Source of the DNA: an archaeon
GTDB lineage: Archaea > Iainarchaeota > Iainarchaeia > Iainarchaeales > 1-14-0-10-31-34
DNA: 32,000 nucleotides
Direction: 5' to 3'
Assembly (NCBI GenBank): GCA_024277355.1
Contig: JAJRVL010000001.1
Span: forward strand, 90,001 to 122,000
Numbering within the stretch: the first letter of the stretch is position 1; each line of letters starts with the position of its first letter. The notes under the pieces are model-generated. The model was not told the origin of the DNA, made no database searches, and saw only the letters and a list, made by a program, of their open reading frames with translations. Positions 1 through 27,024 of the stretch are shown here, piece after piece. A program made the translations under genes and the position numbers.

Positions 1-489
1 TAAATAAAGCAAAGTTTTAACAAATTCTTTTGAACAAGAAGCATATTTTTCATTCTGCATTTTTTCTTTTTCTTTTCTTATTTCTGAAAGCAAAGTAATG
101 TAAGCTAAAATTGGATCAAAAGCAATTAATTCATGAGAAATTTTAACTAATAAGTCATGCCTTAAACCAAAAAATTTTTCACAGTCGCTTCCTGTTTTGC
201 CTAAATTGTCCACTCCCCATAAATTTTCTAATTCAAATTTTGGAACCAACTCTGAAATTTCTTTTAATAATTTAGTTTGCTTTTCATTGTAAACTCTTTC
301 ATAAACTTCAGCCAACACAATCAAATCTGCTTCAACCTGAGACAAAATTGAAATTACATGATAACGGCATGCTTTATCATCAGTTAAAGAAGAAGAATAA
401 ACACAATTCCTGCAGTCAAAAATTAAATGTCTTTTTCCGCCTGATTCTTTAACTGCATAGTCGCCTACTTCAAAGTTCCCTATCTTCAT
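1..489 (-). CDS. Hypothetical protein, partial (start codon at 489-487, runs off the left window edge). Cys-containing N-terminal domain, possibly the N-domain of an archaeal-type VirB11/PilB-family secretion ATPase (unverified).
   Basis: Manual reverse-strand translation gives ATG at 489-487 followed by 163 sense codons with no stop down to position 1 (MKIGNFEVGDYAVKESGGKRHLIFDCRNCVYSSSLTDDKACRYHVISILSQVEADLIVLAEVYERVYNEKQTKLLKEISEL...). It is missing from the ORF track because it has no stop inside the window. AGGT lies 5 nt upstream, and a TTTAATATAA box (complement of 515-524) lies about 26-35 nt upstream. The functional guess rests only on my recollection of similar CxxC-containing N-domains in archaeal secretion ATPases. 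No ATPase motif is visible in the window. Confidence 0.55.
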   Translation of the reverse strand, partial: MKIGNFEVGDYAVKESGGKRHLIFDCRNCVYSSSLTDDKACRYHVISILSQVEADLIVLAEVYERVYNEKQTKLLKEISELVPKFELENLWGVDNLGKTGSDCEKFFGLRHDLLVKISHELIAFDPILAYITLLSEIRKEKEKMQNEKYASCSKEFVKTLLYL

Positions 490-549: not shown

Positions 550-650
550 ACAAAATTAATAAACAAACAAAAACATAATTAGAATGAAATGACACCAAAA
601 AGAAAAATATCTAAACCTGTAAAAATAAAAAAATTCTTGTCAGGAGGAAC
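550..650 (+). repeat. Copy 1 of a 101-bp perfect direct repeat, covering the promoter region plus the first 62 nt of the HTH-protein gene
   Basis: Manual alignment shows 550-650 identical to 2453-2553 (offset 1903): acaaaattaataaacaaacaaaaacataattagaatgaaATGacaccaaaaagaaaaatatctaaacctgtaaaaataaaaaaattcttgtcaggaggaac. The flanks mismatch (a549 vs g2452; a651 vs t2554). Confidence 0.9.
556..563 (+). promoter_or_regulatory. TATA-like box (TTAATAAA) about 26-33 nt upstream of the ATG at 589; possible promoter of a leaderless transcript
   Basis: The box sits inside the 101-bp repeat, so it is identical upstream of both HTH genes. No Shine-Dalgarno-like purine motif lies between it and the ATG. 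AT-rich DNA produces such boxes by chance, so confidence is low. Confidence 0.25.
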
Positions 651-1344
651 ACCAGCACAACAAATAGCAAAACAAACAGGATTTTCAGAAAGCAGATTAA
701 ACCAAATAAAAACAAAACTAAAAAAACAAGGAGTTCACTTGCCAAAATATTCTTCAACAAAATGGAAAAGCAACAAAGGAAAGATGTTTCAAACAGCAAA
801 AATAAGAAAAGCACTAATAACCAGTCCAACAAAAAAAACAATCAAAGAATTTTCAACACAACTAAAAACTAGCAAAACTCTAATCTCCGAAGTAATTAAA
901 CAAATTAAAAAAGAGAATGAAATGTTAATAAAAAAAAGTTTAATTCCATTTGAAATTCAAGTGAAAAAACAAAATAAATTAAAATCAAAAAAAATACAAC
1001 TAATAAAAAAATTTTTGTTAGGGGAAACTCCTGTTTCACAAATAATAAAACAAACAGGGTTATCACAAGCCAGAGTAAGTCAAATAAAAATAGAATTAAA
1101 AAAGCAGGGAATTGAAATTCCTAAATATTCTTCAACACAATGGAAGAATTCAAAAGGAGACATTTACAAAATAAATCAAGTAAGAAAAGCATTAATTACT
1201 AATCCAACAAAACAAACACAAAAACAATACTCAAAACAATTAAAAGTTACTGGCGCCACAATTATTAATGCAATTAAACAAATCAAAAAAGAAAACAGAG
1301 AATTAATAAAAAAAAGAATAAAACCTTTTGAAATTCAAATAAAA
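589..1344 (+). repeat. Intragenic tandem duplication (2 x 378 nt) of the double-HTH module
   Basis: At protein level aa 1-126 and aa 127-252 are co-linear with an offset of exactly 126 aa. The paralog at 2492-3442 has only one copy. Confidence 0.8.
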
Positions 1345-1944
1345 TCAGGACGCACAAAACCTATTCCTAAATTAACTAAAAAACAACAAGTATTACTAAA
1401 AGAAGCACAATCTTTTATTGATTACACAATAAACAAGTTTTCCTTCAAACACAAATTCAATACAGAAACAAAACAAGATTTTCAAGCAGAAGTTCAAAGA
1501 CAATTACCAAATATAATTAAAAAATTTAATTCAAAAGAATCATCATTAAAAACATGGGTAACACAAAAAATATATAGAATAAACCAAGATTTTAACATAC
1601 AAAGAGAAACACAAAAAACAGGACTATCAAGAATTGAAACAAAAATTGGAAGAAAAATAGAAGCATTTATTGCAGAGCAAACAAATCAAATACAACAACA
1701 AAAACAAAGACCAACAACATACCAAGAAACACAAAAAATACTTAAAAACGCAATCAAAGAAGTAAACAACACAAAACACTATGCAAAACAAATGCAAGCA
1801 AACCCAAAAAAATTCCCTAAAGGAAAACTCACATTAAAACAAGCAAAACAAATAATAAACGCAAGACAAACACAAAACACACAACAAAACATAGAAAATA
1901 TATACAAAAAAACAAACAAAAAAAATACAGCAAACTACAACTGA
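589..1944 (+). CDS. Lys/Gln/Thr-rich putative DNA-binding protein with a duplicated N-terminal double-HTH module and a sigma-70 region-2-like C-terminal domain
   Basis: 451-aa ATG ORF ending in TGA. Residues 1-126 and 127-252 are tandem copies; IKKFLSGG at aa 13 corresponds to IKKFLLGE at aa 139. Each copy carries an HTH-like segment (GGTPAQQIAKQTGFSESRLNQIKTKLKKQG / GETPVSQIIKQTGLSQARVSQIKIELKKQG) and a second one (TIKEFSTQLKTSKTLISEVIKQIKKEN). The C-terminal segment TETKQDFQAEVQRQLPNIIKKFNSKESSLKTWVTQKIYRINQDFNIQR fits the sigma-70 region 2 pattern (D..QE....L......F......f..WL...I.R). Paralog of 2492-3442. Confidence 0.75.
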   Translation: MTPKRKISKPVKIKKFLSGGTPAQQIAKQTGFSESRLNQIKTKLKKQGVHLPKYSSTKWKSNKGKMFQTAKIRKALITSPTKKTIKEFSTQLKTSKTLISEVIKQIKKENEMLIKKSLIPFEIQVKKQNKLKSKKIQLIKKFLLGETPVSQIIKQTGLSQARVSQIKIELKKQGIEIPKYSSTQWKNSKGDIYKINQVRKALITNPTKQTQKQYSKQLKVTGATIINAIKQIKKENRELIKKRIKPFEIQIKSGRTKPIPKLTKKQQVLLKEAQSFIDYTINKFSFKHKFNTETKQDFQAEVQRQLPNIIKKFNSKESSLKTWVTQKIYRINQDFNIQRETQKTGLSRIETKIGRKIEAFIAEQTNQIQQQKQRPTTYQETQKILKNAIKEVNNTKHYAKQMQANPKKFPKGKLTLKQAKQIINARQTQNTQQNIENIYKKTNKKNTANYN

Positions 1945-1973: not shown

Positions 1974-2462
1974 ATGAACAAAAACGATGCAGTAAAAGGA
2001 GGAAAATTTTTACTTGAATTAGTTTTAGCTTATGTAATTATTTCCTTATTTTTTTTATTTATTCCATTAGAATTAATTGAATTAATTATAGCAAAAACTG
2101 TTATGATTTTCACAGGCGGAAAAATTGTTTTTCAGGAACCAGTTTTAATTTTATTTGAAAATTTTTCAGTTCAAATAAGTTATTTATGCACAGGCTTAAT
2201 GGAATTTATTTTATTGGCTTCAGCAATAATTGCAACAGCAGGAATCAAAAAAGAAAAAAAAGTTTTGGGAATTGTTGGAGCAGGAATTGCAACTTTTGTT
2301 TTTAATGTAATTAGAATTGTGATAACAATTTCTTTAATTGAAAACACTTCAATAGAAATAATTGAATTAACTCATGATGTTTTATTCAGAATTTCATTAT
2401 TTGTTTTAATTGCAGGATATTATTTTATCTGGTATTACTTTTCAGTGAAAAGACAAAATTAA
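1974..2462 (+). CDS. Exosortase/archaeosortase-family protein, short (162 aa) form
   Basis: Polytopic membrane protein with about 4-5 hydrophobic helices. It carries the family signature residues in the usual order: Cys in VQISYLCTGLMEFILL (C72), Arg in TFVFNVIRIVITI (R114, 42 residues after the Cys), and His/Arg in ELTHDVLFRISLFVLIAG (H134, R139). This matches the C[ST]G ... N..R[IV] ... H pattern of EpsH/exosortase/ArtA proteins as I remember it. Confidence 0.7.
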   Translation: MNKNDAVKGGKFLLELVLAYVIISLFFLFIPLELIELIIAKTVMIFTGGKIVFQEPVLILFENFSVQISYLCTGLMEFILLASAIIATAGIKKEKKVLGIVGAGIATFVFNVIRIVITISLIENTSIEIIELTHDVLFRISLFVLIAGYYFIWYYFSVKRQN

Positions 2463-2553
2463 TAAACAAACAAAAACATAATTAGAATGAAATGACACCA
2501 AAAAGAAAAATATCTAAACCTGTAAAAATAAAAAAATTCTTGTCAGGAGGAAC
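2453..2553 (+). repeat. Copy 2 of the 101-bp perfect direct repeat; it overlaps the last 10 nt of the sortase-like gene
   Basis: Identical to 550-650 by manual alignment. Confidence 0.9.
2459..2466 (+). promoter_or_regulatory. TATA-like box (TTAATAAA) about 26-33 nt upstream of the ATG at 2492
   Basis: Same sequence and spacing as 556-563, as part of the perfect repeat. Confidence 0.25.
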
Positions 2554-3442
2554 TCCTGTTCAACAAATAATAAAACAAACAGGATTATCAGAAAGCAGAA
2601 TAAGTCAAATAAAAACAAAATTACAAAAACAAGGAATTCAAATACCCAAATATTCAAAAACTAACTGGAAAGATTCAAAAGGAAACATATACAAACAAGT
2701 TCGAGCAAGAAAAGCTTTGATTACTAATCCAACAAAACAAACAATCAAAGAATACACAAAACAACTAAACTTTAACACATCAACAATTCAAAATGCAATT
2801 AAGCAAATCAAAAAAGAAAACAGAGAATTAATAAGAAAAGGAATAATGCCTTTAGAAATACAAGTAAAATCAGGATATTTAAAACCTATTCCTAAATTAA
2901 CTAAAAAACAACAAGCAGTATTACAACAAGCACAACCTTTTGTTAGACAAGCAGTTAATAGGCTTTCATTTAAACACAAATTCAATACAGAAACAAAACA
3001 AGATTTTCAGGCTGAAGTTCAAAGACAATTACCAAACATAATAAAAAAATTTAAACCAGAAAAATCACAATTAAACTCTTGGATAACCCAAAAAATATAC
3101 CGAATAAACCAAGAATTTAACATAACAAGAGAAAAACAAAAAACAGGACTATCCACAATTGAAACAAAAATCGGAAAAAAACTAGAAACATTTATACAAA
3201 AACAAACAAACATTCTAGAACAACAACAAAAAAGGAAAATAACTTACCAACAAACACAAAAAATACTACTACAAGCAATCAAAGAATTAAACAACACAAA
3301 ACACTATGCAAAAAGAATGAAAAAAAACTACAAAAAAAGATTCCCTAAAAGAAAACTTACACTAAAAGAAGCAACAGAAATACTAAACGCAAGAAACACA
3401 AGAAACACACAACAAAACACAGAAGACAGAAGGGGCTTGTGA
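2492..3442 (+). CDS. Lys/Gln/Thr-rich putative DNA-binding protein with a single double-HTH module and a sigma-70 region-2-like C-terminal domain (paralog of 589-1944)
   Basis: 316-aa ATG ORF ending in TGA. The first 20 residues are identical to ORF 589. HTH-like segment: GGTPVQQIIKQTGLSESRISQIKTKLQKQG. C-terminal segment: QPFVRQAVNRLSFKHKFNTETKQDFQAEVQRQLPNIIKKFKPEKSQLNSWITQKIYRINQEFNITREKQKTGLSTIETKIGKKLETF, which looks like sigma regions 2 to 3.0. Confidence 0.75.
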   Translation: MTPKRKISKPVKIKKFLSGGTPVQQIIKQTGLSESRISQIKTKLQKQGIQIPKYSKTNWKDSKGNIYKQVRARKALITNPTKQTIKEYTKQLNFNTSTIQNAIKQIKKENRELIRKGIMPLEIQVKSGYLKPIPKLTKKQQAVLQQAQPFVRQAVNRLSFKHKFNTETKQDFQAEVQRQLPNIIKKFKPEKSQLNSWITQKIYRINQEFNITREKQKTGLSTIETKIGKKLETFIQKQTNILEQQQKRKITYQQTQKILLQAIKELNNTKHYAKRMKKNYKKRFPKRKLTLKEATEILNARNTRNTQQNTEDRRGL

Positions 3443-3535: not shown

Positions 3536-6500
3536 ATGATTTCAGAAAAACTTGGAGGAATTTATTCTGCATTAGAAAACAAGTTTTTTGGTTTCTTTGA
3601 TTTTTTAGAAGAAAAAGGAATTCCTGTTTATTCAGTTATTGAACCAATAGAAGATAAAGGAATTCCATTTTTTCCTTTAACTATTGCATTAATTGTTTTA
3701 CTGCTTGTAAGTGCTTTTGGTTTTGCTTCTGCTGGCCCTTTTGAAGCAAAAATTGAATTAAACTTAAAAGATTCTTACGGTAATCCTTTAACTCAAGTTA
3801 AAGTTTTAGTTAAAGATAAAACAGGACAAAATTTGTTTTCTGAAACAAAAAATCATGGAGATATGATTTCAATTAATGCTTCAGCAGGAACAGAATTATT
3901 TTTTACAGCAGAAAAACAAGGATATGAAAAAAACACTGCAAAAATAAAAGTAATAAATGAAAGCTCTGAAATTGAATTAACTTTAAAGAAATTAATTAAT
4001 ACTATTAAAGGAAAAATAAAATTTTATGACAAAGAAACAGACACTGCTGTTTCAGGCGTTGTAGTTTTAATTGACTGGAAAGAAAGAAAAGAAGAAAAAA
4101 CAGCAGACACTTCTGGTTTAGTTGAATTTTTAGATATTCCATTAGAAGAAGATATTTTAATTACAGCAAAAAGTGATTCATATTATGAGTATTCAGGAAT
4201 AATTAATTTTGAATCAGAAGAAACAAAATCAGTTTATTTAACTCCAAAAGAAATTGCTTTTGCAGGCGAAAGCAATCTAATAATAACTTTATTTGAAAAA
4301 GAAACAGGCAAATTATTAGAGAATGCAAAAATAAAAGTTTATTCAGACAATGAATTAATAGATGAAAAAATTGTTTCAGACGGAGTTTACTCAGAAAATT
4401 TCCCTAAAGGAATTGTAGTAAGATTTACTGCAGAAAAAGACGGATTTAAGTTATTTGAATCAGACGAATTTACTTTAAGAAGTGAAGAAGAAAATGCAGG
4501 AAGTATTGAATTAGAAACAGGCGGAAAAGAAGTAATAATTAAAGTTGTTTATTCAGATACAAAAAATCCAAGTGTTGGAGCAGAAGTAACTTTATTTAAT
4601 TCACAAAATGAAATCATTAATTCTTTTTTTACTTTATATGAAGGGCAAACAGAATTCAAAGGTTTAGGAGAAGAAGAATACTTTATTGGAGCAGTAAAAG
4701 AAGGTTATCTGCCTGCAATAAAAAGAATTGAAAATGGAACTGAAACACTTGAATTAATAAAAGAAAATGAAAATAATTCAAAACCATTAACTGTATTAAC
4801 AATAAATGAAAACGAAAAAGTAATTGAAAATGCTTCCTTGTTTTTTACTCAGATAATTGAAGGGATCGAAATTCCTTTAGGGTTAGGAATAAGAAAAACT
4901 GATGCTGCAGGAAAATTAAATTTAAATGTTCCGTTAAACGCAGAAATATATGTTAAAGCAGTGAAAGATTTACTGACAGGAAAAGAAAAAATTTTAATTG
5001 GAGAATACAATAATAATTTATTAATTAAAATGGAAAAAAAAGATTCAGTTAAAAGCATTAAATTTTTTGATGAAAAAGGACAAATTGTTCAGGGAAATTT
5101 AGTAATTAAAACAAAAGAAGGAGAAGTATTATTTGACGATGAAATAACTGAAGAAGAAATATTATTTGATGCAGGAAACAAAAATTTTGTTGAAATAGAA
5201 TTGACAACAACAAACAAAACTTATTCAGAAGAAATTAATTTAGAAGGAAAAAAAGACATTAAATTAAATTTTGATTCAACTGTTTACAGCAAAAATGCTC
5301 CTGAAATAGAATTTTTAGGAGTATATGATATTTCAGGAAATGAAATTGAAGGAATAACAAAAGGAAAAGAATATATTTTAAAATTTAAAACTGACTGGAG
5401 TAAAAAAACAGAAAAAGGCGGACTTCATTTTCGAACAGGAAATGATTCAATTAAATATGCAGATTCAGAAGATATTGGAATAACAGGATTTGATGCACCT
5501 GCAGTAAATTATTTTTATGGAAGAACTTATTCAATGACTCCTTCTCCAGGAAACAAAGAAATAGATTATTCAAATAAAGGACAAGGCGGAAAACTCAATA
5601 AATTTGTTGAAATTTATTTTAATAAACCTGAAGGAACAAAAATAATCAAAATAAGAATTAAAGCAAGTGAATTAATTTCAGCTGAAAAAATTAAAGTTAA
5701 ATTCAGAGGATGGACTGAAACAAAAAGCGGGTTTTCAAGAACTCCAATAGATGAAATTATAGGGACAACAAAAGATTCAGGTGAAAGACAGGGATTATAT
5801 GCTGAAACAAAAGAAATTGAATTAAAAGTTTATGATTCAGAACCGGAATGTATTGAAGAAGTCTGTGCTGAATATAATATAATTGATGAAACAGGAAAAG
5901 TTTATGACAAAAAAGACTTTTTTGCTTTAAAAAATAAAGTTTATGCATTAGAATTAAATTTAGAGGCAAGAAAAACAATTCAAGCAAACTTTAAATTAAA
6001 TACTTCAAATGAAAATCCAAGAATTGCTTTTACAGGAAAACAAGTTAATTCATTCAGCCAGTTTATTGACAACGATAACAGCGATACTTTAACTGAATTC
6101 ACTGAAACTGTTTCAAGAAAAGGAACAAAAATAAGAGTTTATTTTAAAGCAAAAGAAAAAGGAGAAAGTTTTATTGATTCACGGATTACTACTTTGAAAG
6201 ATTCAATGCAGGAAAATTTTTATTTTAAAATATTTGAAGAAAAAGAAATGCAGTTAACAATTCCTGAAACAGCAAACCAAGGAAAAGACTTTGAAATAAG
6301 AATTTTAGAAGAAGGAACCGGAATTGAAAATGCAGAAATAAGTTTTTATAATTCACAAGGAAGACTTGAAACAGTAATTATAGGAAATGAATTTAACGGA
6401 AAAAACGGAAGATATAAAATAAAAAATAATTTTAAAGCAGGAAATTATTTAGTTAAAATTACTGCAGACAAATTTAAGACAGAAGAAAAACAAATTTCAG

Positions 6501-9500
6501 TTATTTACGGAAAAGGATTAGAGTTAGAAGAAGAAGTTAAATTAAATATTCCTGCAAATGAATTGTTTGCATCAAAAAGAACAAAAATAAATAATTCTTC
6601 AGGAGAAAGAATTGAAAATTTAAGTTATGAATTAAATGGAAATTTACCAAAAGAATTCAAGTTAAGTGTAAATCTTCCTTTAACATTAAATTCAGGGGAA
6701 GAAACTGAAATAGAATTAATTGCAGAATATTCAGGAAACTCAAATGCAGTTGTTTTTGGAGAAACAGAAATAATAATTACAGGAACAATAAATGAAATTC
6801 CAATAAAAGCTATAACAAAAGCAAAAATTAATTATAATCAAAAGTTAGATGAAAAATGTTTGGAATTTGACAGAAGTGAATTAAAAGAATACTTAATTGG
6901 AGCAGGAGGAAACTCAAAACAAATTGAATTAGGATTAAAAAATAACTGTAATGTTCCATTAGAATTTGAATTAGAATTTAAATCAAAAGGAAATAAAGAT
7001 AACGAAATAGAATTTAATGCAGGAAAAATAAGAATAGAAAAAGACGAAATAAAAAACATTAAAATAGGAGTAATAAACAAAATTCAAAGAAATTATGTCA
7101 ACCAAATAGAATTAGATTATGATATTTATTTTAAGTCAAGCCAGTTAACAAAAACAATTCCAGCTAAAATAATTTTATGGCATGAAAGATATTCTTTAAG
7201 TGTCAGTCCTTCAATTGTTTTATGGTTAACTCAAAGCAAAAAAGGAGAAAAAGCAGTTTCAAGAACTCCAATTTTTATCAGGAATACAGGTTTTACTGAT
7301 ATACAAAATTTAAGTTTTTCATTTCAGTTTACTAAACCAGGAAACACTGAACTAAAAATTTTATGGGGAAACACTCCTCAAAAAAACATTGAAGTATTAG
7401 GAAAAGGAATGGGATTAATTCCTCCAATGATAGTTGAAGCACAAACAAACACAAAAGAAAACCAGATAATAATTGGAAAAATAATTGTAAACGGAGTAAT
7501 TGAAGGCAAACAATATATGTTAAGAGAAATAAACACTTTTATCAATGTAAGTTCAGGATGGAGCTGCTTAGAAGCGTGGTCAGATGACATGCAGTTTTAT
7601 TCAGATAATGCTGAATTTGGAGGTATAGACAAAATACTAAATATAACAAACAATTGTGTTGAACCAGTAATAATTAAAGGACTTGAACCAGAAAAAATCG
7701 GAGGAAATGAAATTAATTTAATTGACAGAGATTACATGCTAAGCCCTGGAGCAAGTGATGGATTTATTGTAAGATTAACAAAACAAGCTGAAGCAAACCA
7801 AAAAACAAAACTAAAAGTAATTGGAATAGGACAAAATTCAAGAAAAACAATTAATTCAATGCCGTTTGAAATAGAAATTGCAATAGGAAAAGGTTCAGGT
7901 TTATGCGGAGACGGAGAAGAACCATGCAAAGCAGAAAATGAAACAACAGTAGAATACTGTGATGAAAGCGGATATGCAACAATGTATTTTCCAAAACAAT
8001 CAAGTAATTGTTCAGAAGGCTACTGCGATGCAGAAGAATTAGGAAAATTTTTAGCAGAAAAATTTCAGGAAGAAATAAGAAAAGCACAATTAAGAATTGC
8101 AGAATTAAAAAGCGTTGAAAATTTAGGAAGCAAATGCGACTACTATAATAATTACTGTTCTTTCGGAGCAATGGGAATTACAACTTCTTCATTTGAATTT
8201 TATTTCAAAAACGACAATTTAAGTCAAGACATGCTAAAAAATGAAATCAAGAAATTGGAAGTTAAGGAATTACAGAATTATTTTATCAGACCTGGAGAAA
8301 CAGAAAATGAATTATATTCTTCAGCAGGAAATTCTTTTGGAGAACACCTATTATTAGTTCCTTCAATCAGAGGATGCGGAAGATATCAAGCAAGAATTTT
8401 AGGCGCAACAGCAACACATGGAAATGAATTCAAAGACAATTCAATTAGTTTGCTTTTAAAAATAGAACCAAGAGAAGAAACGCCGGAATGCTATAACAGA
8501 ATACAAAACTTTATGAATTTCCTTCCATTAAATGAAAGTTATTCCCCAGCAAACAATAAAGGAAGCTGGTTAGGAATAATAATAAAAGATGAAGACCCAG
8601 AAATAGAAGAATTACAACGAAATTTTTCCAGGACTTTATTTAAAGATGAAAAAGGAATAAGAATTACAACAGTAAAACAAAATAATTTCATTACATTAAG
8701 AGAAGGAAACTTTGATTCAACAAAAGGAATAGTAAAAATTGCAATAGAAAGAAAAGGAAAAAGCAATACCCCAAAAGAAATTGACATCTACATAACTGAT
8801 GATTTTTTTAATGCACCAGAAGAAGTAAGAAACGACATTGCTTCTGAAGCAGGAGCAATTATTTCATCATTAAAAAACGGAAGAATAGAAAAAGGATGCA
8901 TTTCAAAAGAATTAGATTACTTGATTTTAGGTTCAGTTACAGACATTACTGAAATTGCCAATATTCAATGGAAAGATAAAACAAAATTAATCAATTTATA
9001 TCCTGATGCATATAGTTGTGCTGACTTAAAACTGCAAAGCAAGATTGAAAGTCCGGAAACAGTTTTAAGTTGGAATTTAGTTAATGAAGAATTACAAGGA
9101 ATACAAAAAACAGAAACAGTTTTGAAATATAAAGATGGAAGAGAAATAACAAACAAAGGAGAAGAAATAATTCCTTTAAACAGAGTTGAATGGACTGAAG
9201 AAGGAAACCTTTATTCTTTTAATTCTGAATTATGCTTTAAAGGTTCAGATAACCCAAGACAAGCAATGGGTTCAAAAATTAAATTAAACGTTGAAGGACT
9301 AAAAGAAAGAACCTTACAGTTTGGAGTTTGTGCTATTACTCCAATTGAATTTATTGAAAGAAGCAGAACAAAAACAAAAATTGGAAAATGGTTTGCTACA
9401 GTTGACTGGAAAAATAAACCAGAAGAATTACCTTTTACTTCAGCTCAAGCACAATATTATTTAGATAACCCAGAACAAAGCCCTGCATTTAAAAGAGATA

Positions 9501-10750
9501 AAGAATTAGGGAAAAATAAGACAATAGGATTAATTGGTTATGGAGTTGGAGCATTAGGGGGTTGTATAGGAGCAGGAGCATTAACCGGAGGATTTGGATG
9601 GCTTGACTGTATTTTAAATGCAGGAATTCCAACAGCAATTGGTGCTTTTTCTGACAGAGGATCAGTTTATGATACAGCAAAAACTGGTTATCAAAACGCA
9701 TTAGCTTCAGTCGGAGTAGGTAAAGTAGAATTAAATCAAATAAGAGAAGAAACTTCTGATTTAACTGACCCTCAGTTTTTCGGAGAACTTGAATTAATGA
9801 CTGCAATGACCAGAGGAGCACAAGAAACAGTTAAATTAGTTCTTCCAGTAAAAGAAGAAGCAAAAGTTGCAGCCCAAGCTGCAAAAGATTTAGCTTCAAG
9901 TGGCTCAAAAGAATTACTTGATGAACTTACATCAATAAATACAGATGTAAAAAGTTTTAATAACGCAAGAAAATTATTAAGCCAGTCTGAAATAACTGAA
10001 ATAGGAACTTTTCCTCCAGGCACAAAAGTAAGAGTAACAGCTATAAGAACAGCTGATGTTGGCGGACTAAAATTTATTAGAACTACAAGTGCTACCAACC
10101 CTTTACTAGTGGAGGGAACAACCACATTCCCTGGATTCCAAGATAAATATGATGATTTAATTAAATCCTTTAAAACAGCTAAAATTGGAAATAGGACAAT
10201 CCCAGGAATAGATAGTTTAATTGATGAATCATTTAAGACCACTGGAAAAAAACCAGTGTCTGTTTTGAATGACTTAGCTTCAGACCCTGATAGAGGATTA
10301 CTAAAAAGAATTGATGATTGGGGAGCAAAAGTTGATCAAGTAGCAGTTGATACTCCTGAAGGAAAAATATTGAAAGCAGTAAAAGAAACATTTGTTGAAA
10401 ACGCAGGAGACGACATAAGTTATGGCGGAAAACCAATAAGGCAAACAGGAATAACAAAACTTAAAGGTACAACTAAAATTCCAAGCATTTTATCTGATGC
10501 AAAAGCTTTTTCAACTAAAGGAAAAATTTTATCTTTCCTTGAAAGAAATCCAAGACTAAAAGCATTAGGAAAAGGAATAGTTATTTCTGGAGGCGGAGCA
10601 ATGTTAGGAGGAATGGCTGGCTGGATGTTAGCTAATGCTTTCTTAGGAGACTTTGAAGAAATCCCAGAAGCTCAAGCAGACGTTTCAGCAATAACTTTTA
10701 GAAAAGGATTTACTTATGAAGTTAAAGTAGGAAAAAACCAGACAGGATAA
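3536..10750 (+). CDS. Giant membrane-anchored surface protein, paralog 1 (GP1, 2404 aa)
   Basis: Uninterrupted 7.2-kb ORF. GAAAGG lies 8 nt upstream of the ATG. It has the conserved N-terminal motif plus a TM helix (IYSALENKFFGFFDFLEEKGIPVY...DKGIPFFPLTIALIVLLLVSAFGF), then beta-sandwich repeats, a GGLHFRTG module, Ig-like modules carrying L.NNC / I.NNC strands, a Cys-rich YCDESG...YCDAEE region and two Gly-rich hydrophobic segments near the C-terminus. Confidence 0.95.
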   Translation: MISEKLGGIYSALENKFFGFFDFLEEKGIPVYSVIEPIEDKGIPFFPLTIALIVLLLVSAFGFASAGPFEAKIELNLKDSYGNPLTQVKVLVKDKTGQNLFSETKNHGDMISINASAGTELFFTAEKQGYEKNTAKIKVINESSEIELTLKKLINTIKGKIKFYDKETDTAVSGVVVLIDWKERKEEKTADTSGLVEFLDIPLEEDILITAKSDSYYEYSGIINFESEETKSVYLTPKEIAFAGESNLIITLFEKETGKLLENAKIKVYSDNELIDEKIVSDGVYSENFPKGIVVRFTAEKDGFKLFESDEFTLRSEEENAGSIELETGGKEVIIKVVYSDTKNPSVGAEVTLFNSQNEIINSFFTLYEGQTEFKGLGEEEYFIGAVKEGYLPAIKRIENGTETLELIKENENNSKPLTVLTINENEKVIENASLFFTQIIEGIEIPLGLGIRKTDAAGKLNLNVPLNAEIYVKAVKDLLTGKEKILIGEYNNNLLIKMEKKDSVKSIKFFDEKGQIVQGNLVIKTKEGEVLFDDEITEEEILFDAGNKNFVEIELTTTNKTYSEEINLEGKKDIKLNFDSTVYSKNAPEIEFLGVYDISGNEIEGITKGKEYILKFKTDWSKKTEKGGLHFRTGNDSIKYADSEDIGITGFDAPAVNYFYGRTYSMTPSPGNKEIDYSNKGQGGKLNKFVEIYFNKPEGTKIIKIRIKASELISAEKIKVKFRGWTETKSGFSRTPIDEIIGTTKDSGERQGLYAETKEIELKVYDSEPECIEEVCAEYNIIDETGKVYDKKDFFALKNKVYALELNLEARKTIQANFKLNTSNENPRIAFTGKQVNSFSQFIDNDNSDTLTEFTETVSRKGTKIRVYFKAKEKGESFIDSRITTLKDSMQENFYFKIFEEKEMQLTIPETANQGKDFEIRILEEGTGIENAEISFYNSQGRLETVIIGNEFNGKNGRYKIKNNFKAGNYLVKITADKFKTEEKQISVIYGKGLELEEEVKLNIPANELFASKRTKINNSSGERIENLSYELNGNLPKEFKLSVNLPLTLNSGEETEIELIAEYSGNSNAVVFGETEIIITGTINEIPIKAITKAKINYNQKLDEKCLEFDRSELKEYLIGAGGNSKQIELGLKNNCNVPLEFELEFKSKGNKDNEIEFNAGKIRIEKDEIKNIKIGVINKIQRNYVNQIELDYDIYFKSSQLTKTIPAKIILWHERYSLSVSPSIVLWLTQSKKGEKAVSRTPIFIRNTGFTDIQNLSFSFQFTKPGNTELKILWGNTPQKNIEVLGKGMGLIPPMIVEAQTNTKENQIIIGKIIVNGVIEGKQYMLREINTFINVSSGWSCLEAWSDDMQFYSDNAEFGGIDKILNITNNCVEPVIIKGLEPEKIGGNEINLIDRDYMLSPGASDGFIVRLTKQAEANQKTKLKVIGIGQNSRKTINSMPFEIEIAIGKGSGLCGDGEEPCKAENETTVEYCDESGYATMYFPKQSSNCSEGYCDAEELGKFLAEKFQEEIRKAQLRIAELKSVENLGSKCDYYNNYCSFGAMGITTSSFEFYFKNDNLSQDMLKNEIKKLEVKELQNYFIRPGETENELYSSAGNSFGEHLLLVPSIRGCGRYQARILGATATHGNEFKDNSISLLLKIEPREETPECYNRIQNFMNFLPLNESYSPANNKGSWLGIIIKDEDPEIEELQRNFSRTLFKDEKGIRITTVKQNNFITLREGNFDSTKGIVKIAIERKGKSNTPKEIDIYITDDFFNAPEEVRNDIASEAGAIISSLKNGRIEKGCISKELDYLILGSVTDITEIANIQWKDKTKLINLYPDAYSCADLKLQSKIESPETVLSWNLVNEELQGIQKTETVLKYKDGREITNKGEEIIPLNRVEWTEEGNLYSFNSELCFKGSDNPRQAMGSKIKLNVEGLKERTLQFGVCAITPIEFIERSRTKTKIGKWFATVDWKNKPEELPFTSAQAQYYLDNPEQSPAFKRDKELGKNKTIGLIGYGVGALGGCIGAGALTGGFGWLDCILNAGIPTAIGAFSDRGSVYDTAKTGYQNALASVGVGKVELNQIREETSDLTDPQFFGELELMTAMTRGAQETVKLVLPVKEEAKVAAQAAKDLASSGSKELLDELTSINTDVKSFNNARKLLSQSEITEIGTFPPGTKVRVTAIRTADVGGLKFIRTTSATNPLLVEGTTTFPGFQDKYDDLIKSFKTAKIGNRTIPGIDSLIDESFKTTGKKPVSVLNDLASDPDRGLLKRIDDWGAKVDQVAVDTPEGKILKAVKETFVENAGDDISYGGKPIRQTGITKLKGTTKIPSILSDAKAFSTKGKILSFLERNPRLKALGKGIVISGGGAMLGGMAGWMLANAFLGDFEEIPEAQADVSAITFRKGFTYEVKVGKNQTG
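3740..5280 (+). other. Array of about 5-6 beta-sandwich repeats of roughly 90 aa in GP1 (carboxypeptidase-regulatory-like / PEGA-like pattern); approximate boundaries
   Basis: The recurrent pattern is 'I.L.V.D..G.PL..A.V.L' ... 'G.Y...A.K.GY/F'. Examples: LFFTAEKQGYEKNTAKIKV, VVRFTAEKDGFKLFESDEF, YFIGAVKEGYLPAIKRI. Confidence 0.5.
9524..9649 (+). other. Glycine-zipper-like hydrophobic segment inside GP1 (42 aa)
   Basis: IGLIGYGVGALGGCIGAGALTGGFGWLDCILNAGIPTAIGAF, with small-xxx-small spacing of Gly/Ala and no charged residue except one Asp. Confidence 0.55.
10574..10648 (+). other. Second Gly-rich hydrophobic segment near the GP1 C-terminus
   Basis: GIVISGGGAMLGGMAGWMLANAFLG. Confidence 0.5.
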
Positions 10751-10960: not shown

Positions 10961-12664
10961 ATGAATAAAAAAGGTTTTACTTTATTTACTGCTTTGGTTT
11001 CTTTTGTTTTAATTTTATTAAGTGCAATGTTAGTCCAGACAATGATTAAAGCTGAAAGAGACAGAACAGAAGTAATATCAAACATTGAAGAACAAGCAGA
11101 AATGCAGGCAATGGCAGACTTAACAAGAGCTGAAGCATTACAGACATTTAATTATACTATAAGAAAAAGAATGGAAGAATACTTCAGTAACCCAACAAAC
11201 ACAATTGAAATTTACCCGCAAGAAAATAATTTTCAGGAAATACAAGAAAAGTTTGCTGAAAGATTTTTTGGAGCAGGCGGAACAGGAGACCAGTTTATCA
11301 ACGATATGGCAGTAACAATAACAGAATCAATGCCTTCAACTAAATTTATTGGCCCATATGAAATTTCAGTTAAATTTAAAGGAACAGGAGTAACAGAACA
11401 AAAAGAAATTTTATTTGCTTCATTAAAAGAATTATTTAAAAAAAGCGTTGAAGCAGGAGAATTTTTTGAGGTTGTTAACTGTGAAAACGGAAACCCCCAA
11501 GACTGTTTAGGAACATTTTACCTTAATTTAGACACATCAGATTTAAGTGAAGAAACCTATGAATCTTTTCCGCAAATTAAAGTACATAATCCAAGAACTC
11601 AAAGAATTTTACAGGAATCAATTTTTCCTAAAGGAAAAATCAAAATATATGTCCCAATCAGATTATTTAAAGCAATAGCTGAAGCAAGAAGCCTTGCATT
11701 AGAATATGAAAAAGAAACAGGAAATTCATGGAAAACAAATTATGGATTATTTTCTCCAAGAATTCATAATGAAATAGAAGAAATGAAATTAGGAATATGC
11801 GATCCTTCTTACTGCAGTTTAAGAACTAATCCTTATGTTCCTCCTGAAAACAAAAACATGCAAATTCCCTGCCCTAATACAACTGGATTCCCAGTAGCTG
11901 AAATAAATTATCCTTCAGTTAAATGCACTACTGATTTATTAGAAAGAGGATTATGTTTTGATTCTTCAGGAAATCCAGTAGCAGTGGGAAGAAAAATTTT
12001 AAGTTATAGTCCAAATACAGCACCAAATACAACTGAAGAAAACCTATTTGATCCAAATAATCAGGGAAAAAAAATATCTGAATTAGCAGGAAAAAGATTA
12101 TGCAAATTAATTCAGGAAAATATTGCTACAGGAGATTACTTGGATTTTGATTCTGCTGATGATTTTATTTTAGGACAAGATGACAGTTATGCTTTTGTAT
12201 GCAATCTTTCAGACAGAAAAAAAGTTTCAATGTCAATTATTTCAACTACAAGAAATTCAGTTAAAGTGGATTTACAGGGAGCAGGTTCAGCAAGTCTTGA
12301 TCCAGGTTTTAATAGAAGATATAATGCAAACAATAATTATGGAGGAACAGCTTCTTGCCCGCAGAATTCTGCATCTAATTCATTATTGTGGGGAACTTAT
12401 GGAATAGGAATTAATGCAGATAATAAAATAATTCAAAAAACAAAAGATTCAGCTAGCTGTTTAGGTTTTCCTTTAGGAATAACTCCAAATTATGCAACTT
12501 GTTCTGAAGTAAGCAAAATAGCAATAAGAATTCCATTCAAAGAAACAAACAAAAATTATATTATTGACAAAACAAACAAACCAGTTTATGTAATTGAATT
12601 AATTGACGATAAGTTTACTCCTGATTCTTACACTGATGCATTTCATCAGACAACAAGATTTTAA
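10961..12664 (+). CDS. Large (567 aa) Cys-rich secreted protein with a type IV pilin-like (class III) N-terminal signal
   Basis: The N-terminus MNKKG|FTLFTALVSFVLILLSAMLVQTMI has basic residues, then Gly, then about 24 hydrophobic residues. This is the prepilin-peptidase substrate pattern, but there is no Glu at +5. The mature part has many Cys pairs (VVNCENGNPQDC, GICDPSYC, IPCPNTT...VKCTT...GLCF). TGGGG lies 8 nt upstream of the ATG. Confidence 0.8.
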   Translation: MNKKGFTLFTALVSFVLILLSAMLVQTMIKAERDRTEVISNIEEQAEMQAMADLTRAEALQTFNYTIRKRMEEYFSNPTNTIEIYPQENNFQEIQEKFAERFFGAGGTGDQFINDMAVTITESMPSTKFIGPYEISVKFKGTGVTEQKEILFASLKELFKKSVEAGEFFEVVNCENGNPQDCLGTFYLNLDTSDLSEETYESFPQIKVHNPRTQRILQESIFPKGKIKIYVPIRLFKAIAEARSLALEYEKETGNSWKTNYGLFSPRIHNEIEEMKLGICDPSYCSLRTNPYVPPENKNMQIPCPNTTGFPVAEINYPSVKCTTDLLERGLCFDSSGNPVAVGRKILSYSPNTAPNTTEENLFDPNNQGKKISELAGKRLCKLIQENIATGDYLDFDSADDFILGQDDSYAFVCNLSDRKKVSMSIISTTRNSVKVDLQGAGSASLDPGFNRRYNANNNYGGTASCPQNSASNSLLWGTYGIGINADNKIIQKTKDSASCLGFPLGITPNYATCSEVSKIAIRIPFKETNKNYIIDKTNKPVYVIELIDDKFTPDSYTDAFHQTTRF

Positions 12665-13118: not shown

Positions 13119-16100
13119 ATGGGTTTGAAAGAAGTTTATTCTGCAATAGAAACCAAATATTATAATTTCATGGATGCGATAGACGAAAAAGGAATTCCAG
13201 TGTATAAAGCAATTGATTTTGTTGAATCAAAAAGCATTCCTTCTTTTCCTTTAGCAGTTATTTTTTTTGTATTAATTTTATCAGGATTAATTTTAACTTT
13301 AAATGGCGGAAGCTTACTGCAGAATACAACTGAATTTGAATTAATGATAACAGATGGAACAACAGCAATACAAGGAACAACAATAAGTTATTTTTTAGGA
13401 GAAAAACAAATTACAGTTACAACTAATAATCAAGGAAAAGCAGTAATTGAAGTAACTCAAGGAAAAGAATTTTCAGTTACAGCAGAAAAAAATGGATTTA
13501 AAAAAATAACTAAAACTTTTGATGCAAAAGATGAAAAAGCAACACTTGTTTTAATTGCAGATATATTAAAGCCAATTAAAATCCAGTTATTAGGAAAAGG
13601 AAACGAATTATTAGAAGAAGAAATAAAAGTTTCTTTTACTTGTTCTGAAAATGACAAATGGAATGAAATAGTTTTATTTAACACAGGAACAACAAATTTA
13701 GCTGATGTTCCGGCAAACTGCGGAAAAATTTTAGCTGAACCAATAGGGAAAAAATGTTCAGACTGTGACTTTGATGCATATGATTCATTAATTAAAATTT
13801 ATTTAGAAGAAACCACAACAGAAAAAGGAACAATTAATTTTACTGTATTAGATGACAAAGGAAATTATGCTGAAGCAATACAAGTAATGGTTATTCCCAC
13901 AGGAAATTTAAAAGAAGAAGATTCATGCTATACTTTTAATGGTTTATGTGAAACAGAAGTCCCATTTGGAACTTATTATATTAGAGCAACGGATTCAACA
14001 GGAAAATTAAGAGATTATGATTCAAGAAAAGATACAATAACTATTACATTAAATTCAAATAACCAAAACATTGATTTTGAAGAAATAATTTTAGGACAAG
14101 GAGTAATTGGACAAATAAAAATTAAAATTAAAAGTGAAACAGGAAATTTAATTGAAGATGCATTAGTCAGATTATTTAAAGATAATTCTGAAATAAACCA
14201 GCAAAGAAGCAATACAGAAGGAGAAATAATATTTAATGTTGCAGAACAAATTGATTACACTGTTTCAGTTACTCATGCAAATTATTTGAATTCAGATGTA
14301 AAAACGGTTTCTCCAAAAAATGATTTTTATTCATTTTCATTAAAAGAAGCAACTTCTTCTAATAAAAGAAAAATTGAAGTAAACGTAGTAGACGAAAAAA
14401 ATGAAGCAGTAGAAAACACTAAAGTTTTCTTAAAAGATGCATTAACCGGAAGCATTGTAGGACAAGAAAAAGTAACTGGATTAGACGGAAAAGCTTCATT
14501 TGAAAGACTTCCAACAGGAAAATATATTTTAAGAGCAGAAAAAAGAGGCTTTGAAGGAAAAGATTCAAGAGTAATTGAAGTAAAAGAAAATGAATTAAAT
14601 GAAGTAACAATAAAATTAGATTTAGGACAGGGAAACCTTGACGTAATAGTTATAGATAAAGAAAAACAGCCAATTCAGTCAGCAACAATTAAAGTAATAG
14701 ATTATTTTACAGGAAAAGAAATTTTTGTTGATTCAACTGACACTGAAGGAAAAAAAAGCTTTAATATCAGAGCAGACAAAAAAGTTTATTTAGAAGTAAA
14801 TGAAAGTTCTCACTCTAATTATATTAGTGCACCGATTCAGATGTTTAATGGAACAGAAGAAAAAACAATTTTATTAGAAGATTCAATTAATTCTTTTGCA
14901 ATTAAATTAGAAGAATTAAGTTTAGAAGGACAGGAAGTAGAAAACATTACTGTTTCAGAAGGAAGAACTTATAAAGCTAAATTCAAATTAATGATTCCAA
15001 CAAATGTTTTTTCAAATAATGCAGGAGTTCATATCAGGACTGGCGCAGACACAAAAAACCAGAATAATACAATGGAAAAAGATGATTTATACATCAAAAA
15101 AGTTATTGCTTCAAATGCAAAAATAATTAAAGGAACAGCATTTAATCCAAATACAGGTTATGCAATTGACTCAAAGCATTTAACTTCAGGAAATGCAAAA
15201 TGGACAAACATAATATTTAATTCAGTTAAAGAAGGAACCTATGAAGTTGAAATAGTAATTCAGGTAAGAGAAACCTTAAACGGCAGTCCAATGGAATTAG
15301 CTTATAGAGCTTGGATTGAAAACAATGGATATCAAAGAGATCCATATGATTCAGAATTACAGGAAGCAGAAAGTTCAGCATTAAAACAAGCATTATATGC
15401 AAAAACAAGACATGAACCATTAAAGATTGGGGCATCAAGTTTATGTGCAGAAAATTTTTGTTCAAGCTTTACAATAAAAGATTTGCAGAATGCAGTAAGA
15501 ACAAATATAATTGATTCTTTTCCAGCAGAAATTTCAAGTAATTATGAATTAGAATTTAATATAATCAGCACAAGCGAAAAAACTTATTCTAATAGCGAAC
15601 TAATAATTAAAGGAAAAGGAATTGAATTAAATTCATATGAAATTCAAGGCACACAAAAAAATGCTGAAGGAGAAATCATAGTTAAAACAGGATTAATAGA
15701 AAAAGGACAAAAAATTTCAGGGACAATAAATTTCACAACAAAAAAAGAAGGAACAAACAGAATTGACTTAAGTTTGTTTGGAGAAAGTTCAACTTTAGGA
15801 AAAGAAAAAATATTATTTAAGCCTATAAGAGCTGAAGTAAAACATGCAAAAACAATGATTGTTTCAAATTCTCCTCAGAATTTAGTTCCATTTATTAAAA
15901 ATAATTTATTAGTAAGAATAACAGATGAAGAAGAAAATGAATTAAGTGAAGTAGAAATAAAAATAGAAAAGGACTTTGAATTAATTGCTTCAGGAAAAAC
16001 TGATTCAAAAGGAATTTTTGCTTTTGGGTTTGAAGCAATGAACCCAGGAACAAAAATAATTATTACTGCAGAAAAATACGGTTTTAATTCAGTTGAAAAA

Positions 16101-25500: not shown

Positions 25501-27024
25501 GTAAATGCTTTGCCTAAAATCAAATTAGACTGGAAATGGAATTCAATAACACAAAATTCATGCGATGAAAGTAATGAAAATTACATTTACTGTGATGCAA
25601 CACAATTTTCAATTGAATTACTCAAAAAAATAAAAGAATTAACTGAAAGACTTGAAGCAGATGCATTAACTTGTGAAACAAACTGCGTTTATTCAACAAT
25701 TGAATTGCCTGCATTAATTGAAAACACAGAAAAAACAAGATCTGTTTCAGACAAAGAAAGATTACTTGAATTAGTTTCATTTAATTCTTATTTAATTAAA
25801 GACGGTTATTCAAAAGACTTCCAGGAAGACTTCCATGATTATGCAGTTAATATTGATTTCTTTAATGCTCCAACTTCTTATTACAATCCAATAGAAGAAA
25901 TAGGCCTTGGAGTTTACTTTAAAGACAATTCATTATTTGAATTCAATTACGAAGGCAGTCCTAACGCACCATTATCAGGACCAGGATTATACAACATTGA
26001 AATAGATATTACCTATAATGATTCTTCATGGAAATTATTCAATGGAAATACTCCTAATGCAAAAATAAAAATTAATTTAAGCAAACAAAGAGCAGCAAAA
26101 CCAAACTCTCCATTATATTACCTGCCATTTAACGGAGAAATTGGACTTACATCAGATAATGGAAGAATAGGTTATGGATTAGATTACGAAAATTTAACAG
26201 GAAAACCAATAAGAATAAATGACACTACAAGAAGTATTAGAACAGTTCCTCTTTCAGTTGCTGATCCAGTAGAAGAATTAAGAACAATATATGAAACAGA
26301 CTTCAAAAAATTAAATTTAGATGAAAGAGCAAAAATAATGCAGTTTGAAAGAACTTCAACCGGAACAAAATTAACTTATACTCCTTCAACTGCAACTCCA
26401 GTAATACTTGAAACAACAAGAAGTTCTGAAACACCAAAAGAAACAGCTTATGCATTTTATTTAATTACAGTTGACGGTCAGGCACAAAATGTTGGAAGCA
26501 CAGGAATAACTAATTGGTCAGGAATAGAAGCAAACTGCAAAGACTTTGAAGACAGAAGTTCATTAGATTACATGGAAACAGCAGACATGCATGGAATAAG
26601 CAGTGAAGCAAGCAATGCACAGATTACTGCAGATAAAGCAACAGCTTATGGATGGATATGGAATAATCCAATTAGAACTGGAAAATTCTGGTTAGAAACA
26701 TTAATTTTTAGTCCACTTGAATCAAAAACACAAATGCATTTAATTTCAGCAGCAAACAATGCAAAAATTTATACTCCATTAGATTCAGCAGTATTAACAG
26801 AGAATTCAAACTTAACTCCTTTTGTTGAATTAAATGGAGTAACAAGCTTGGAAATAACTTCCCTACAAAAAATACTTGATTTAGTTGAAACAAAAGATGT
26901 TTGTGTTGGAGGAATAGGAAATTCAAGTTATAGTTATTTCTTCTGGAATCCAGAAAAAGTTGATGACTCAATTAATTCAGTTAAAAACAAGTTAAACGCA
27001 GAAGAAAACTGTATTCTGAAATAA
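22579..27024 (+). CDS. Giant surface protein paralog 3 (GP3), C-terminal fragment. Homologous coding sequence actually resumes at 22546, immediately after the TAA.
   Basis: The TTG 'start' at 22579 in the ORF track is internal to the conserved module. The 11 codons 22546-22578 (GDAKWFNSVWF) align with GP2 (GNAKWTNIIFN) and GP4. There is no SD-like motif, no N-terminal motif and no TM at this 'start'. Downstream are the CSNEFC pair, Ig-like modules (ISIGIGGEVDDPNC..., IENAC...), a hydrophobic region, the KIKLDWKWNS...IYCDATQF module and the C-terminal domain shared with GP2. Confidence 0.8.
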   Translation: MPEKGVHNIEILIKVKENARLGQELKLKYRAYADTGSRTERNPTDVSVTSSEELNAAVKEKTFTVGANIFCSNEFCFSATILDLKEDIIKKVSNSYQTKILQKYELQFDILNNNKTKKHYDAKIQLKNENEMLNFLDYRISNADALTKSGTADKKELPWVELGDFDPNNHITGKTEFITQETKTGTIDIVIVSNQEIVFEKNIQIEVQAPKNFLVEFTPEKIPSTTSSLIEFTVFDEETGIEIENAQIKVIDRFGDLIAGPELTDREGKTEIIISGQAPDTKLIFRTEKQEYNISELEVFTDNSIIEITPDRIGITLNTKTQKSNEFSFKIKNILEFDLELTSLKFTGNFRDLLNKKAMNAWMNTNYGNIIIPSKTTKEVKVKGILSDYALNREERDIVELDLELELSNGEAFWTKEIPAKISIGIGGEVDDPNCLTLEQRTWKTGTEGSKVKIDFGIENACTINGNPIELKDLEAKVNWNSNHIGTYTLTFEGNPVELRSAYYRKLTEEMENRKYTATLSFEPNGGVNGTANAEIILRARNQLDGKDEFIEDKISTEIKIINLKDCIKFSNTDLKVKKGEITSFNVSTLGCGSNVSFTFDSELKLNSKSLTLGSEDSTEIKIDSRDALSGRYLIKAEAKGNSLATKTQIQNIFVTVFEDSCVALSRYEFDIYDSTENDFDGYDTAQLYNYCDEKELLIKVNMKDWSLAMRNSLLPSLIAFGTATISDKSSDKADTTDNSNGEKVWAAEKESIPTTAFIGLPFIGEISQILSGGNLLKSVFGSASPFEIFGITFVASTLYNYFSADEIGFNAIADNITVDDIVLLEGIKYTTEKIEVLDEEIGLVIDGPFSCFDSVSNKTIDCWDLTFVNENKLVQEDEFTPIMKILKTKSAEHFWKTDYDGDYFNENKGFLEKMFNGADLDLKKPLQEKTNKQNEILQYNKLQFNSFNPEDTTLGKQNAFGSCSIGELTGETGVNALPKIKLDWKWNSITQNSCDESNENYIYCDATQFSIELLKKIKELTERLEADALTCETNCVYSTIELPALIENTEKTRSVSDKERLLELVSFNSYLIKDGYSKDFQEDFHDYAVNIDFFNAPTSYYNPIEEIGLGVYFKDNSLFEFNYEGSPNAPLSGPGLYNIEIDITYNDSSWKLFNGNTPNAKIKINLSKQRAAKPNSPLYYLPFNGEIGLTSDNGRIGYGLDYENLTGKPIRINDTTRSIRTVPLSVADPVEELRTIYETDFKKLNLDERAKIMQFERTSTGTKLTYTPSTATPVILETTRSSETPKETAYAFYLITVDGQAQNVGSTGITNWSGIEANCKDFEDRSSLDYMETADMHGISSEASNAQITADKATAYGWIWNNPIRTGKFWLETLIFSPLESKTQMHLISAANNAKIYTPLDSAVLTENSNLTPFVELNGVTSLEITSLQKILDLVETKDVCVGGIGNSSYSYFFWNPEKVDDSINSVKNKLNAEENCILK
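24835..24987 (+). other. Degenerate hydrophobic/Gly-rich region inside GP3
   Basis: IPTTAFIGLPFIGEISQILSGGNLLKSVFGSASPFEIFGITFVASTLYNYF. It is preceded at about 24711-24750 by NSLLPSLIAFGTA, which aligns with RSLLEFGGLASG of GP4. Confidence 0.4.

Follow-up and report, generated by a model that had tools for sequence, protein, structure and literature searches.

Attachment to host cells is believed to be the way of life of DPANN archaea, but the machinery behind it is known for only a minority of their lineages. The archaeosortase ArtA and its PGF-CTERM substrates were reportedly the subject of work by Haft, Payne and Selengut in 2012 and by Abdul Halim and colleagues from 2013 to 2018, and Haft et al. 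are said to have given, in 2012, PIP-CTERM as the signal of ArtD and PEFG-CTERM as that of ArtE. In Haloferax volcanii, ArtA cleaves PGF-CTERM tails in a process tied to lipid anchoring, and each of the archaeosortase subfamilies has its own motif (PMC6098224). In one of the archaeal type IV pilus systems, of Pyrobaculum type, there is a large protein that carries a transmembrane (TM) domain at its C-terminus (Makarova, Koonin & Albers 2016, PMC4858521). Do these two subjects, sorting enzymes and pili, ever meet? Neither the archaeal type IV pilus survey (PMC4858521) nor a survey of DPANN dark matter (PMC6393860) mentions a sortase or an archaeosortase in such loci, leader-bearing giant proteins of the kind treated below are described in neither, and in the literature we found no description of a pilus-linked archaeosortase in DPANN or of the pairing of sortase and tail proposed here.

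Our subject is one gene in a window of 32,000 nucleotides (G000:C10:90001-122000; by the window we mean the whole stretch that was analysed) from a genome, G000, of 1.13 Mb and 28% G+C that is 96% complete in 11 contigs. Judged by its sequence, the 162-aa product of this gene is a genuine small archaeosortase of an unnamed subfamily with its putative catalytic residues intact, and we call it the A-type sortase. Its gene forms a constant part of a surface-apparatus locus that is conserved among DPANN archaea of the Iainarchaeota/Diapherotrites type. Its likely substrate (we put the probability at roughly 0.6, on the evidence of synteny and co-occurrence) is a protein of about 1,500 aa, encoded in the same locus, that carries the tail motif NLPS[LM]PE.

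A small archaeosortase

The open reading frame runs from 1974 to 2462 on the plus strand, starts with ATG and encodes 162 aa. A preliminary description, made from the window alone, had recognized in it the signature of the exosortase/archaeosortase superfamily—LCTG, FNVIRIV and THDVLFR—and all three motifs are indeed present, at residues 71-74, 110-116 and 133-139. The profile search that it had suggested bears out the assignment to the superfamily: the protein reaches 37.5 bits with the NCBIfam signature model for exo_archaeo (TIGR04178; cut-off 23) and 27.8 with the Pfam family PF09721 (cut-off 25.7). Across 26 homologues, reaching down to 33% identity, the residues C72, T73, G74, N111, R114 and H134 are invariant, R139 is kept in at least 90%, and C72, R114 and H134 are also retained in a paralogue of the same genome (C3:12016-12513) that is only 25% identical. 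From the alignment, Cys72, Arg114 and His134 (plus Arg139) are candidates for the catalytic residues of the A-type sortase.

To which subfamily, then, does it belong? No named subtype model of NCBIfam reaches its curated cut-off with the 162-aa protein: XrtX (NF046081) scores 31.9 against 170, pacearchaeosortase (NF033505) 23.4 bits against 80, ArtD (TIGR04175) 20.4 against 125, XrtG 24.7 against 102.75, XrtM 24.9 against 125, XrtH 23.7 against 86 and XrtK 13.8 against 55, and the ArtA model (TIGR04125, cut-off 75 bits) gives no match. The protein had also been described as far shorter than enzymes of the ArtA/XrtA type. Shorter it is, but unusual it is not: its size is not novel in itself, because several curated subtypes have 150-170 residues (model lengths are 150 for ArtD and XrtM, 153 for ArtE, 158 for XrtH, 163 for XrtK, 167 for pacearchaeosortase and 168 for XrtX).

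An AF2 model of the protein (pLDDT 91, pTM 0.84) has four long helices (3-27, 75-87, 93-122 and 127-159), a shorter one (32-47) and a small beta-sheet at 50-68, directly before Cys72. If, as we presume, the loop with KKEKK (91-96) faces the cytoplasm, Cys72, Arg114 and His134 would point towards the outer face of the membrane. The PDB holds no sequence relative of the sortase and no relative in fold (best Foldseek E-value 0.55), and the closest homologues bear the names Candidatus Diapherotrites or Micrarchaeota archaeon in their annotation, which places G000 among DPANN archaea of the Iainarchaeota/Diapherotrites type.

With the A-type protein as query, 182 of the 201 genomes of the class give a match at E <= 0.01 (some of the weak ones may be the paralogue), and more than 130 do so at E < 1e-15. 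In the profiling of presence and absence, genomes that seemed to lack the sortase proved to be incomplete or divergent. The enzymes of families f1, f2, f3, f10 and f18, in which the gene order around the sortase is the same, are 40-51% identical to that of the window, and those of f32, a second order within the class, have a length of only 136-139 aa.

The conserved pilus and giant-protein locus

The window opens with the N-terminal 163 codons (1..489, minus strand) of a type IV pilus/T2SSE-type ATPase, the full gene of which (G000:C10:88207-90489) encodes 760 aa and matches T2SSE of Pfam with E = 9e-18; it is transcribed divergently from the sortase, and the arrangement is the same in relatives. 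The sortase itself sits between two paralogous genes for Lys/Gln-rich HTH proteins, both on the plus strand, one directly upstream (589..1944, with weak, sub-threshold HTH Pfam matches only) and the other directly downstream (2492..3442). Both are specific to G000, and the upstream one falls outside the conserved locus in relatives. The promoter and 5' regions of the two are identical over at least 45 nt (560-604 repeats as 2463-2507). In the relatives L003, L005/G074 and G009, a polytopic membrane protein of 290-350 aa instead occupies the place between ATPase and sortase.

To the right of the sortase, and all on the plus strand, come four giants that share an N-terminal leader. GP1 (3536..10750; 2,404 aa) has the leader (leader HMM 1.9e-30), one TM helix and a CarboxypepD_reg-type Ig-like ectodomain; GP2 (13119..20450; 2,443 aa) has the leader and no internal hydrophobic segment; GP3 (20467..27024) has the leader and falls into two parts, of 692 + 1,481 aa, at one in-frame TAA (22543-22545); and GP4 (27108..32000), again with the leader, continues beyond the window to C10:124214, for 2,368 aa in the genome. 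The stop in GP3, which interrupts some 2,185 codons in one frame and is followed by 11 sense codons before the next start, could be the mark of a pseudogene, an assembly error or a case of read-through. Between GP1 and GP2 lies the gene for a pilin-headed protein of 567 aa (10961..12664, plus strand) with a prepilin-like N-terminus, MNKKG/FTLFTALVS, and weak matches to the ComGF and ComGG pilins; an orthologue is found at the equivalent position in L003. The pilus ATPase of that locus (L003:3423-7202; 1,259 aa) contains an intein (Pfam Intein_splicing and LAGLIDADG_3).

The leader reads approximately Y..E[DN]K.Y...D.L...GIPVY...D..E.KGIP[SF][FL]P, followed by the TM helix, and it is carried by two to five giants per genome in 10 of the 10 genomes tested, order f32 included. 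As a rule, a leader giant comes first among the conserved genes that follow the sortase downstream. It lies on the same strand and within about 1.5 kb in G000, G007, G009, G027, G036, G046 and L003, and the gap shrinks to less than 50 bp in G022 and G010 (second order). It had been noticed that some giants contain Gly-rich hydrophobic segments with G.GW (GGFGWL, GMAGWM and GPAGWL), and these exist, two in GP1 and one in GP4. The accompanying suggestion that the giants are cut there finds no support: neither GP2 nor the orthologous giants in G007 and G036 have such segments, their positions in other giants are unrelated, and when the giants were searched for PE-type motifs with a helix behind them, the one match was an internal LPETN in GP4, which no helix follows. 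We have rejected internal cleavage at the G.GW segments on these grounds.

Left of the window, the minus strand carries the gene for a T2SSF-like platform protein (721 aa) and, left of that, genes for six small proteins, several of which start with an archaeal KGQ-type class III signal. Further left come an unrelated plus-strand gene and then, both on the minus strand, genes for a polytopic membrane protein of 178 aa (G000:C10:80776-81312, 8.7-9.2 kb left of the window start) and a protein of 1,508 aa. The gene for the smaller of the two abuts the start of the gene for the larger (80775/80776). Its product has no Pfam or PDB match, a protein of about 155-216 aa stands at the equivalent position in relatives, f32 included, and perhaps the sortase and its target have in it a third partner.

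The conserved order can thus be written as follows: a tail protein of about 1,500-1,690 aa, a membrane protein of about 180 aa, five or six pilins, T2SSF and T2SSE, and divergently from these the sortase, the giants and the pilin-headed protein. It recurs in contigs of other samples, in families f1, f2, f3, f10 and f18 and in the order f32. That is, a locus of about 42 kb in a genome of 1.13 Mb recurs across the whole class. Family f5 presents a different picture. In these genomes of about 0.8 Mb (G013, G075 and G123; loci L020-L025), the sortase homologue has an FHGFLFR motif and lies beside ribosomal-protein-like genes, not beside the pilus operon. The tail protein, whose motif is NLPLTPE or NIPLTPE, is encoded elsewhere in the genome, and so are the giants, at a distance of about 160 kb or more. 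The locus of this family has been broken up, but its parts are all kept.

Candidate substrates and a second paralogue

What does the enzyme act on? The preliminary description observed, correctly, that no complete protein of the window ends in a motif, a TM helix and a basic tail, and concluded that no substrate was nearby. Inside the 32-kb window that holds; outside it does not, for a canonical candidate lies 11.2 kb upstream of the start of the sortase, in the same conserved locus, and as its gene is 9.2 kb left of the window edge, it was not visible from the window alone. The other thought offered there, that substrates lie elsewhere in the genome, proved right. A scan of all ORFs of G000 for products that end in a hydrophobic helix and a short tail brought out two clean tail classes, one of seven LPETN proteins and the other consisting of a single 1,508-aa protein, that of the pilus locus, which ends in NLPSMPEG, helix and basic residues. 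The PGF motif is absent from all tails listed by the scan. A third tail type, in which [GA]FF[GS]L precedes the helix and the basic residues, has one representative in G000 (C2:144516-145592), and tails of this type are also found on large proteins near the sortase homologues of G046 (L026/L027) and G123 (L024/L025).

The 1,508-aa protein (G000:C10:76249-80775, minus strand) is a secreted protein with a Sec-type signal peptide, and at its other end, it has FNLPSMPEG, a membrane helix of 19 aa and KKN (in full, ...GQNLMNININDKTANNPFNLPSMPEG-IALLLFVLGLVSFMLFVQF-NFKKN). It has no Pfam or PDB relative. The same tail is carried by its orthologues in six further loci, and a tail HMM finds an ORF of about 1,500 aa with the tail in 48 of the 48 related genomes tested, which span 17 families (two of them also give a weak second match on a short ORF). 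When the matches of the tail HMM were compared with those of the sortase search, tail and sortase were on a common contig in 22 of the 48 genomes, and in 20 of these, they were 2-25 kb apart; the two exceptions belong to family f9, where the tail gene is 120-200 kb from the sortase. Tails read directly in 18 more genomes conform to [FL][ND][LI]P[SL][LMVT]P[EQTP], followed by a helix and basic residues, and in the order f32, the equivalent position of the locus is taken by a protein that ends in SLPSLGEW or SLPLLDGW, a helix and R. The curated NCBIfam models of sorting domains (CTERM) match neither the tail of the G000 protein nor the LPETN tails; the only match to any of them is a sub-threshold one, by Loki-CTERM (15.3 against 19.9), to the helix part of the homologous tail of G004.

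The genome has a second enzyme of this kind. The B-type archaeosortase (G000:C3:12016-12513; 165 aa) is the 25%-identical paralogue mentioned above; it scores 49.7 bits with TIGR04178 and 29.9 against a cut-off of 75 with the ArtA model. Its gene is translationally adjacent to that for CDP-archaeol synthase (CarS; PF01864, 1.5e-41; region C3:6420-13027), and nearby are a pair of genes for membrane proteins of about 350 and 550 aa and large housekeeping genes. From their sequences, read without a family search, we take the pair to be SecD/SecF and a large gene to be DNA polymerase D. The neighbourhood is alike in four genomes of four families (G000, G004, G036 and G007), and the pairing of B-type and CarS is found again in the order f32, so it is conserved in two orders. 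Both paralogues are carried by five of the five genomes tested and have also been seen at f32 loci. The pairing of a sortase with CarS echoes the lipid-anchoring chemistry proposed for ArtA.

The seven secreted proteins with LPETN, a helix and K/R are encoded at C1:59-1597, C2:19635-22277, C2:267370-268998, C2:298209-301004, C2:381315-383486, C3:6420-7580 and C10:132095-133525, and one LPETN gene is 4.5 kb from the B-type sortase. LPETN resembles the LPXTG of classical sortases in a genome that has no such sortase, and a classical sortase as the LPETN enzyme is ruled out by the lack of any PF04203 match in this 96%-complete genome. On the evidence of its surroundings, the B-type is probably the general enzyme for the seven LPETN proteins. 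The multi-copy tails differ from lineage to lineage: LPETN is present seven times in G000, its place is taken by AIPETS in G004 and by GIPEIH in G036, and an HMM of the LPETN tail finds nothing in G007 or G074. These multi-copy tails drift while the tail of the pilus locus stays near-constant, which argues for separate recognition. The simplest reading of gene neighbourhoods and motif behaviour, evidence of the sort by which archaeosortases and their signals are commonly matched, is a division of labour in which a CarS-linked enzyme would serve as general anchor enzyme and the enzyme of the window would be dedicated to one protein.

How might that dedicated enzyme work? By analogy with ArtA, Sec would export the protein of about 1,500 aa, and its C-terminal helix would hold it for a short while. 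The site formed by Cys72, Arg114 and His134, presumably at the outer membrane face, could then cut at or after NLPS[LM]PE, and an acceptor, for which a membrane lipid is the likeliest choice, would receive the new C-terminus. Such a transfer would anchor the protein beside the pilus and the giant-protein machinery.

Our pairing of enzyme and substrate has to be set against other ways of reading the same genes. Both tail classes share a grammar of LP..PE, helix and basic residues, so one enzyme might serve both, and the A-type sortase might act on the multi-copy [LI]PET-type tails, redundantly with the CarS-linked paralogue or instead of it, the 1,508-aa protein being one of a shared pool. One LPETN protein is encoded on the contig of the sortase, 40 kb downstream, and there is a precedent in Haloferax, where a single enzyme, ArtA, takes care of the full set of nine PGF-CTERM proteins (PMC6098224). 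We nevertheless consider a shared pool unlikely: two enzymes only 25% identical to each other are both kept, in all five genomes checked and at the f32 loci; the motif of LPETN type changes from family to family, and NLPSLPE is fixed; and the housekeeping context (CarS, the putative SecD/SecF and the LPETN gene 4.5 kb off) belongs to the B-type, not to the A-type. A more radical thought is that the 162-aa protein has no peptidase function and is a structural or assembly subunit in the membrane of a pilus-like machine. It is very small, no subtype model recognizes it, and in the loci compared, it always accompanies the ATPase and platform genes; a scaffold without catalysis would, however, not be expected to keep Cys72, Arg114 and His134 invariant across 26 sequences, and we regard this as very improbable indeed.

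The giants are a harder matter. Against our pairing, it must be said that the immediate and most conserved neighbour of the sortase is a giant and that the tail protein stands 9-25 kb off, across the divergent pilus operon. Profiles of presence and absence are of no help here, because sortase, tail protein and leader giants are all near-universal in the order. The link in gene order between sortase and giants is nevertheless real and deep. So tight a linkage keeps a functional connection between the two alive. Might the sortase process the giants, at the junction of leader and TM helix or in the internal Gly-rich segments, or couple them, a giant being the acceptor in a transpeptidation? The spacing of the genes and the presence of leader giants in every genome tested would fit, but the giants lack the tripartite signal at the C-terminus, the Gly-rich segments are not conserved, and in f5, sortase and giants have parted. 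Moreover, GIP[SF][FL]P would, by the AF2 model and the positive-inside rule, lie on the cytoplasmic side of an N-in anchor and, therefore, away from the predicted active site at the outer face. Altogether, we think it decidedly unlikely that giants are what the sortase processes or couples. In another variant, the sortase would be no simple lipid-anchoring enzyme but a transpeptidase that links the NLPSLPE protein of about 1,500 aa covalently to a leader giant, to the pilin-headed protein or to the pilus fibre; this would account for the lasting association of the sortase gene with the giant genes in two orders, but we see it as a long shot. Dedicated processing of the NLPS[LM]PE protein by the A-type sortase is the reading that we prefer.

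The locus beside described systems

With ArtA and its PGF-CTERM proteins, the pair proposed here has in common the superfamily signature, the conserved Cys and Arg and a Sec-exported substrate that ends in motif, helix and basic tail. The differences are considerable. The A-type sortase is about half the size (the ArtA model has 271 positions) and gives no match to that model; in place of PGF, its motif is NLPS[LM]PE; the enzyme would have one dedicated target per genome as opposed to up to 52; and it sits in a type IV pilus locus. In this genome, the closer functional analogue of ArtA is the B-type, with its many likely substrates and its lipid-biosynthesis neighbour. With ArtD, ArtE, pacearchaeosortase, XrtH, XrtK, XrtM and XrtX, the A-type sortase shares a minimal architecture of 150-170 residues, and it is with these that the best partial HMM alignments are obtained, but the scores stay far below cut-off, and none of them is described with an NLPSLPE tail or in a pilus locus. 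The archaeosortase system would gain a subfamily that has no name as yet and, in NLPSLPE-CTERM, a sorting signal for which there is no curated model, and the split between a CarS-linked general paralogue and a pilus-linked dedicated one would make a natural system for the study of archaeosortase specificity.

The loci for archaeal type IV pili (PMC4858521, PMC6393860) resemble this one in having a divergent operon of ATPase, platform and pilins together with large secreted proteins. What the locus offers in addition is a biochemical handle, since a sortase with one tail protein reduces to a 60-residue tail reporter and a 162-residue enzyme that could be brought together in Haloferax or E. coli. 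The sortase gene is, we believe, the most tractable entry into an undescribed surface apparatus of DPANN archaea.

The last comparison takes us furthest afield. Gram-positive bacteria that build pili with class C sortases also encode a dedicated enzyme, a cysteine transpeptidase, within the pilus cluster, their C-terminal signals also consist of motif, helix and basic residues, and LPETN is much like LPXTG. The enzymes are nonetheless unrelated in fold (there is no PF04203 here), and the pilus of our locus is a type IV pilus driven by an ATPase. Covalent polymerization of the pilus in these archaea is pure speculation, but if the sortase should prove to be a transpeptidase after all, it would be the type IV pilus analogue of the sortase-built pili of Gram-positive bacteria.
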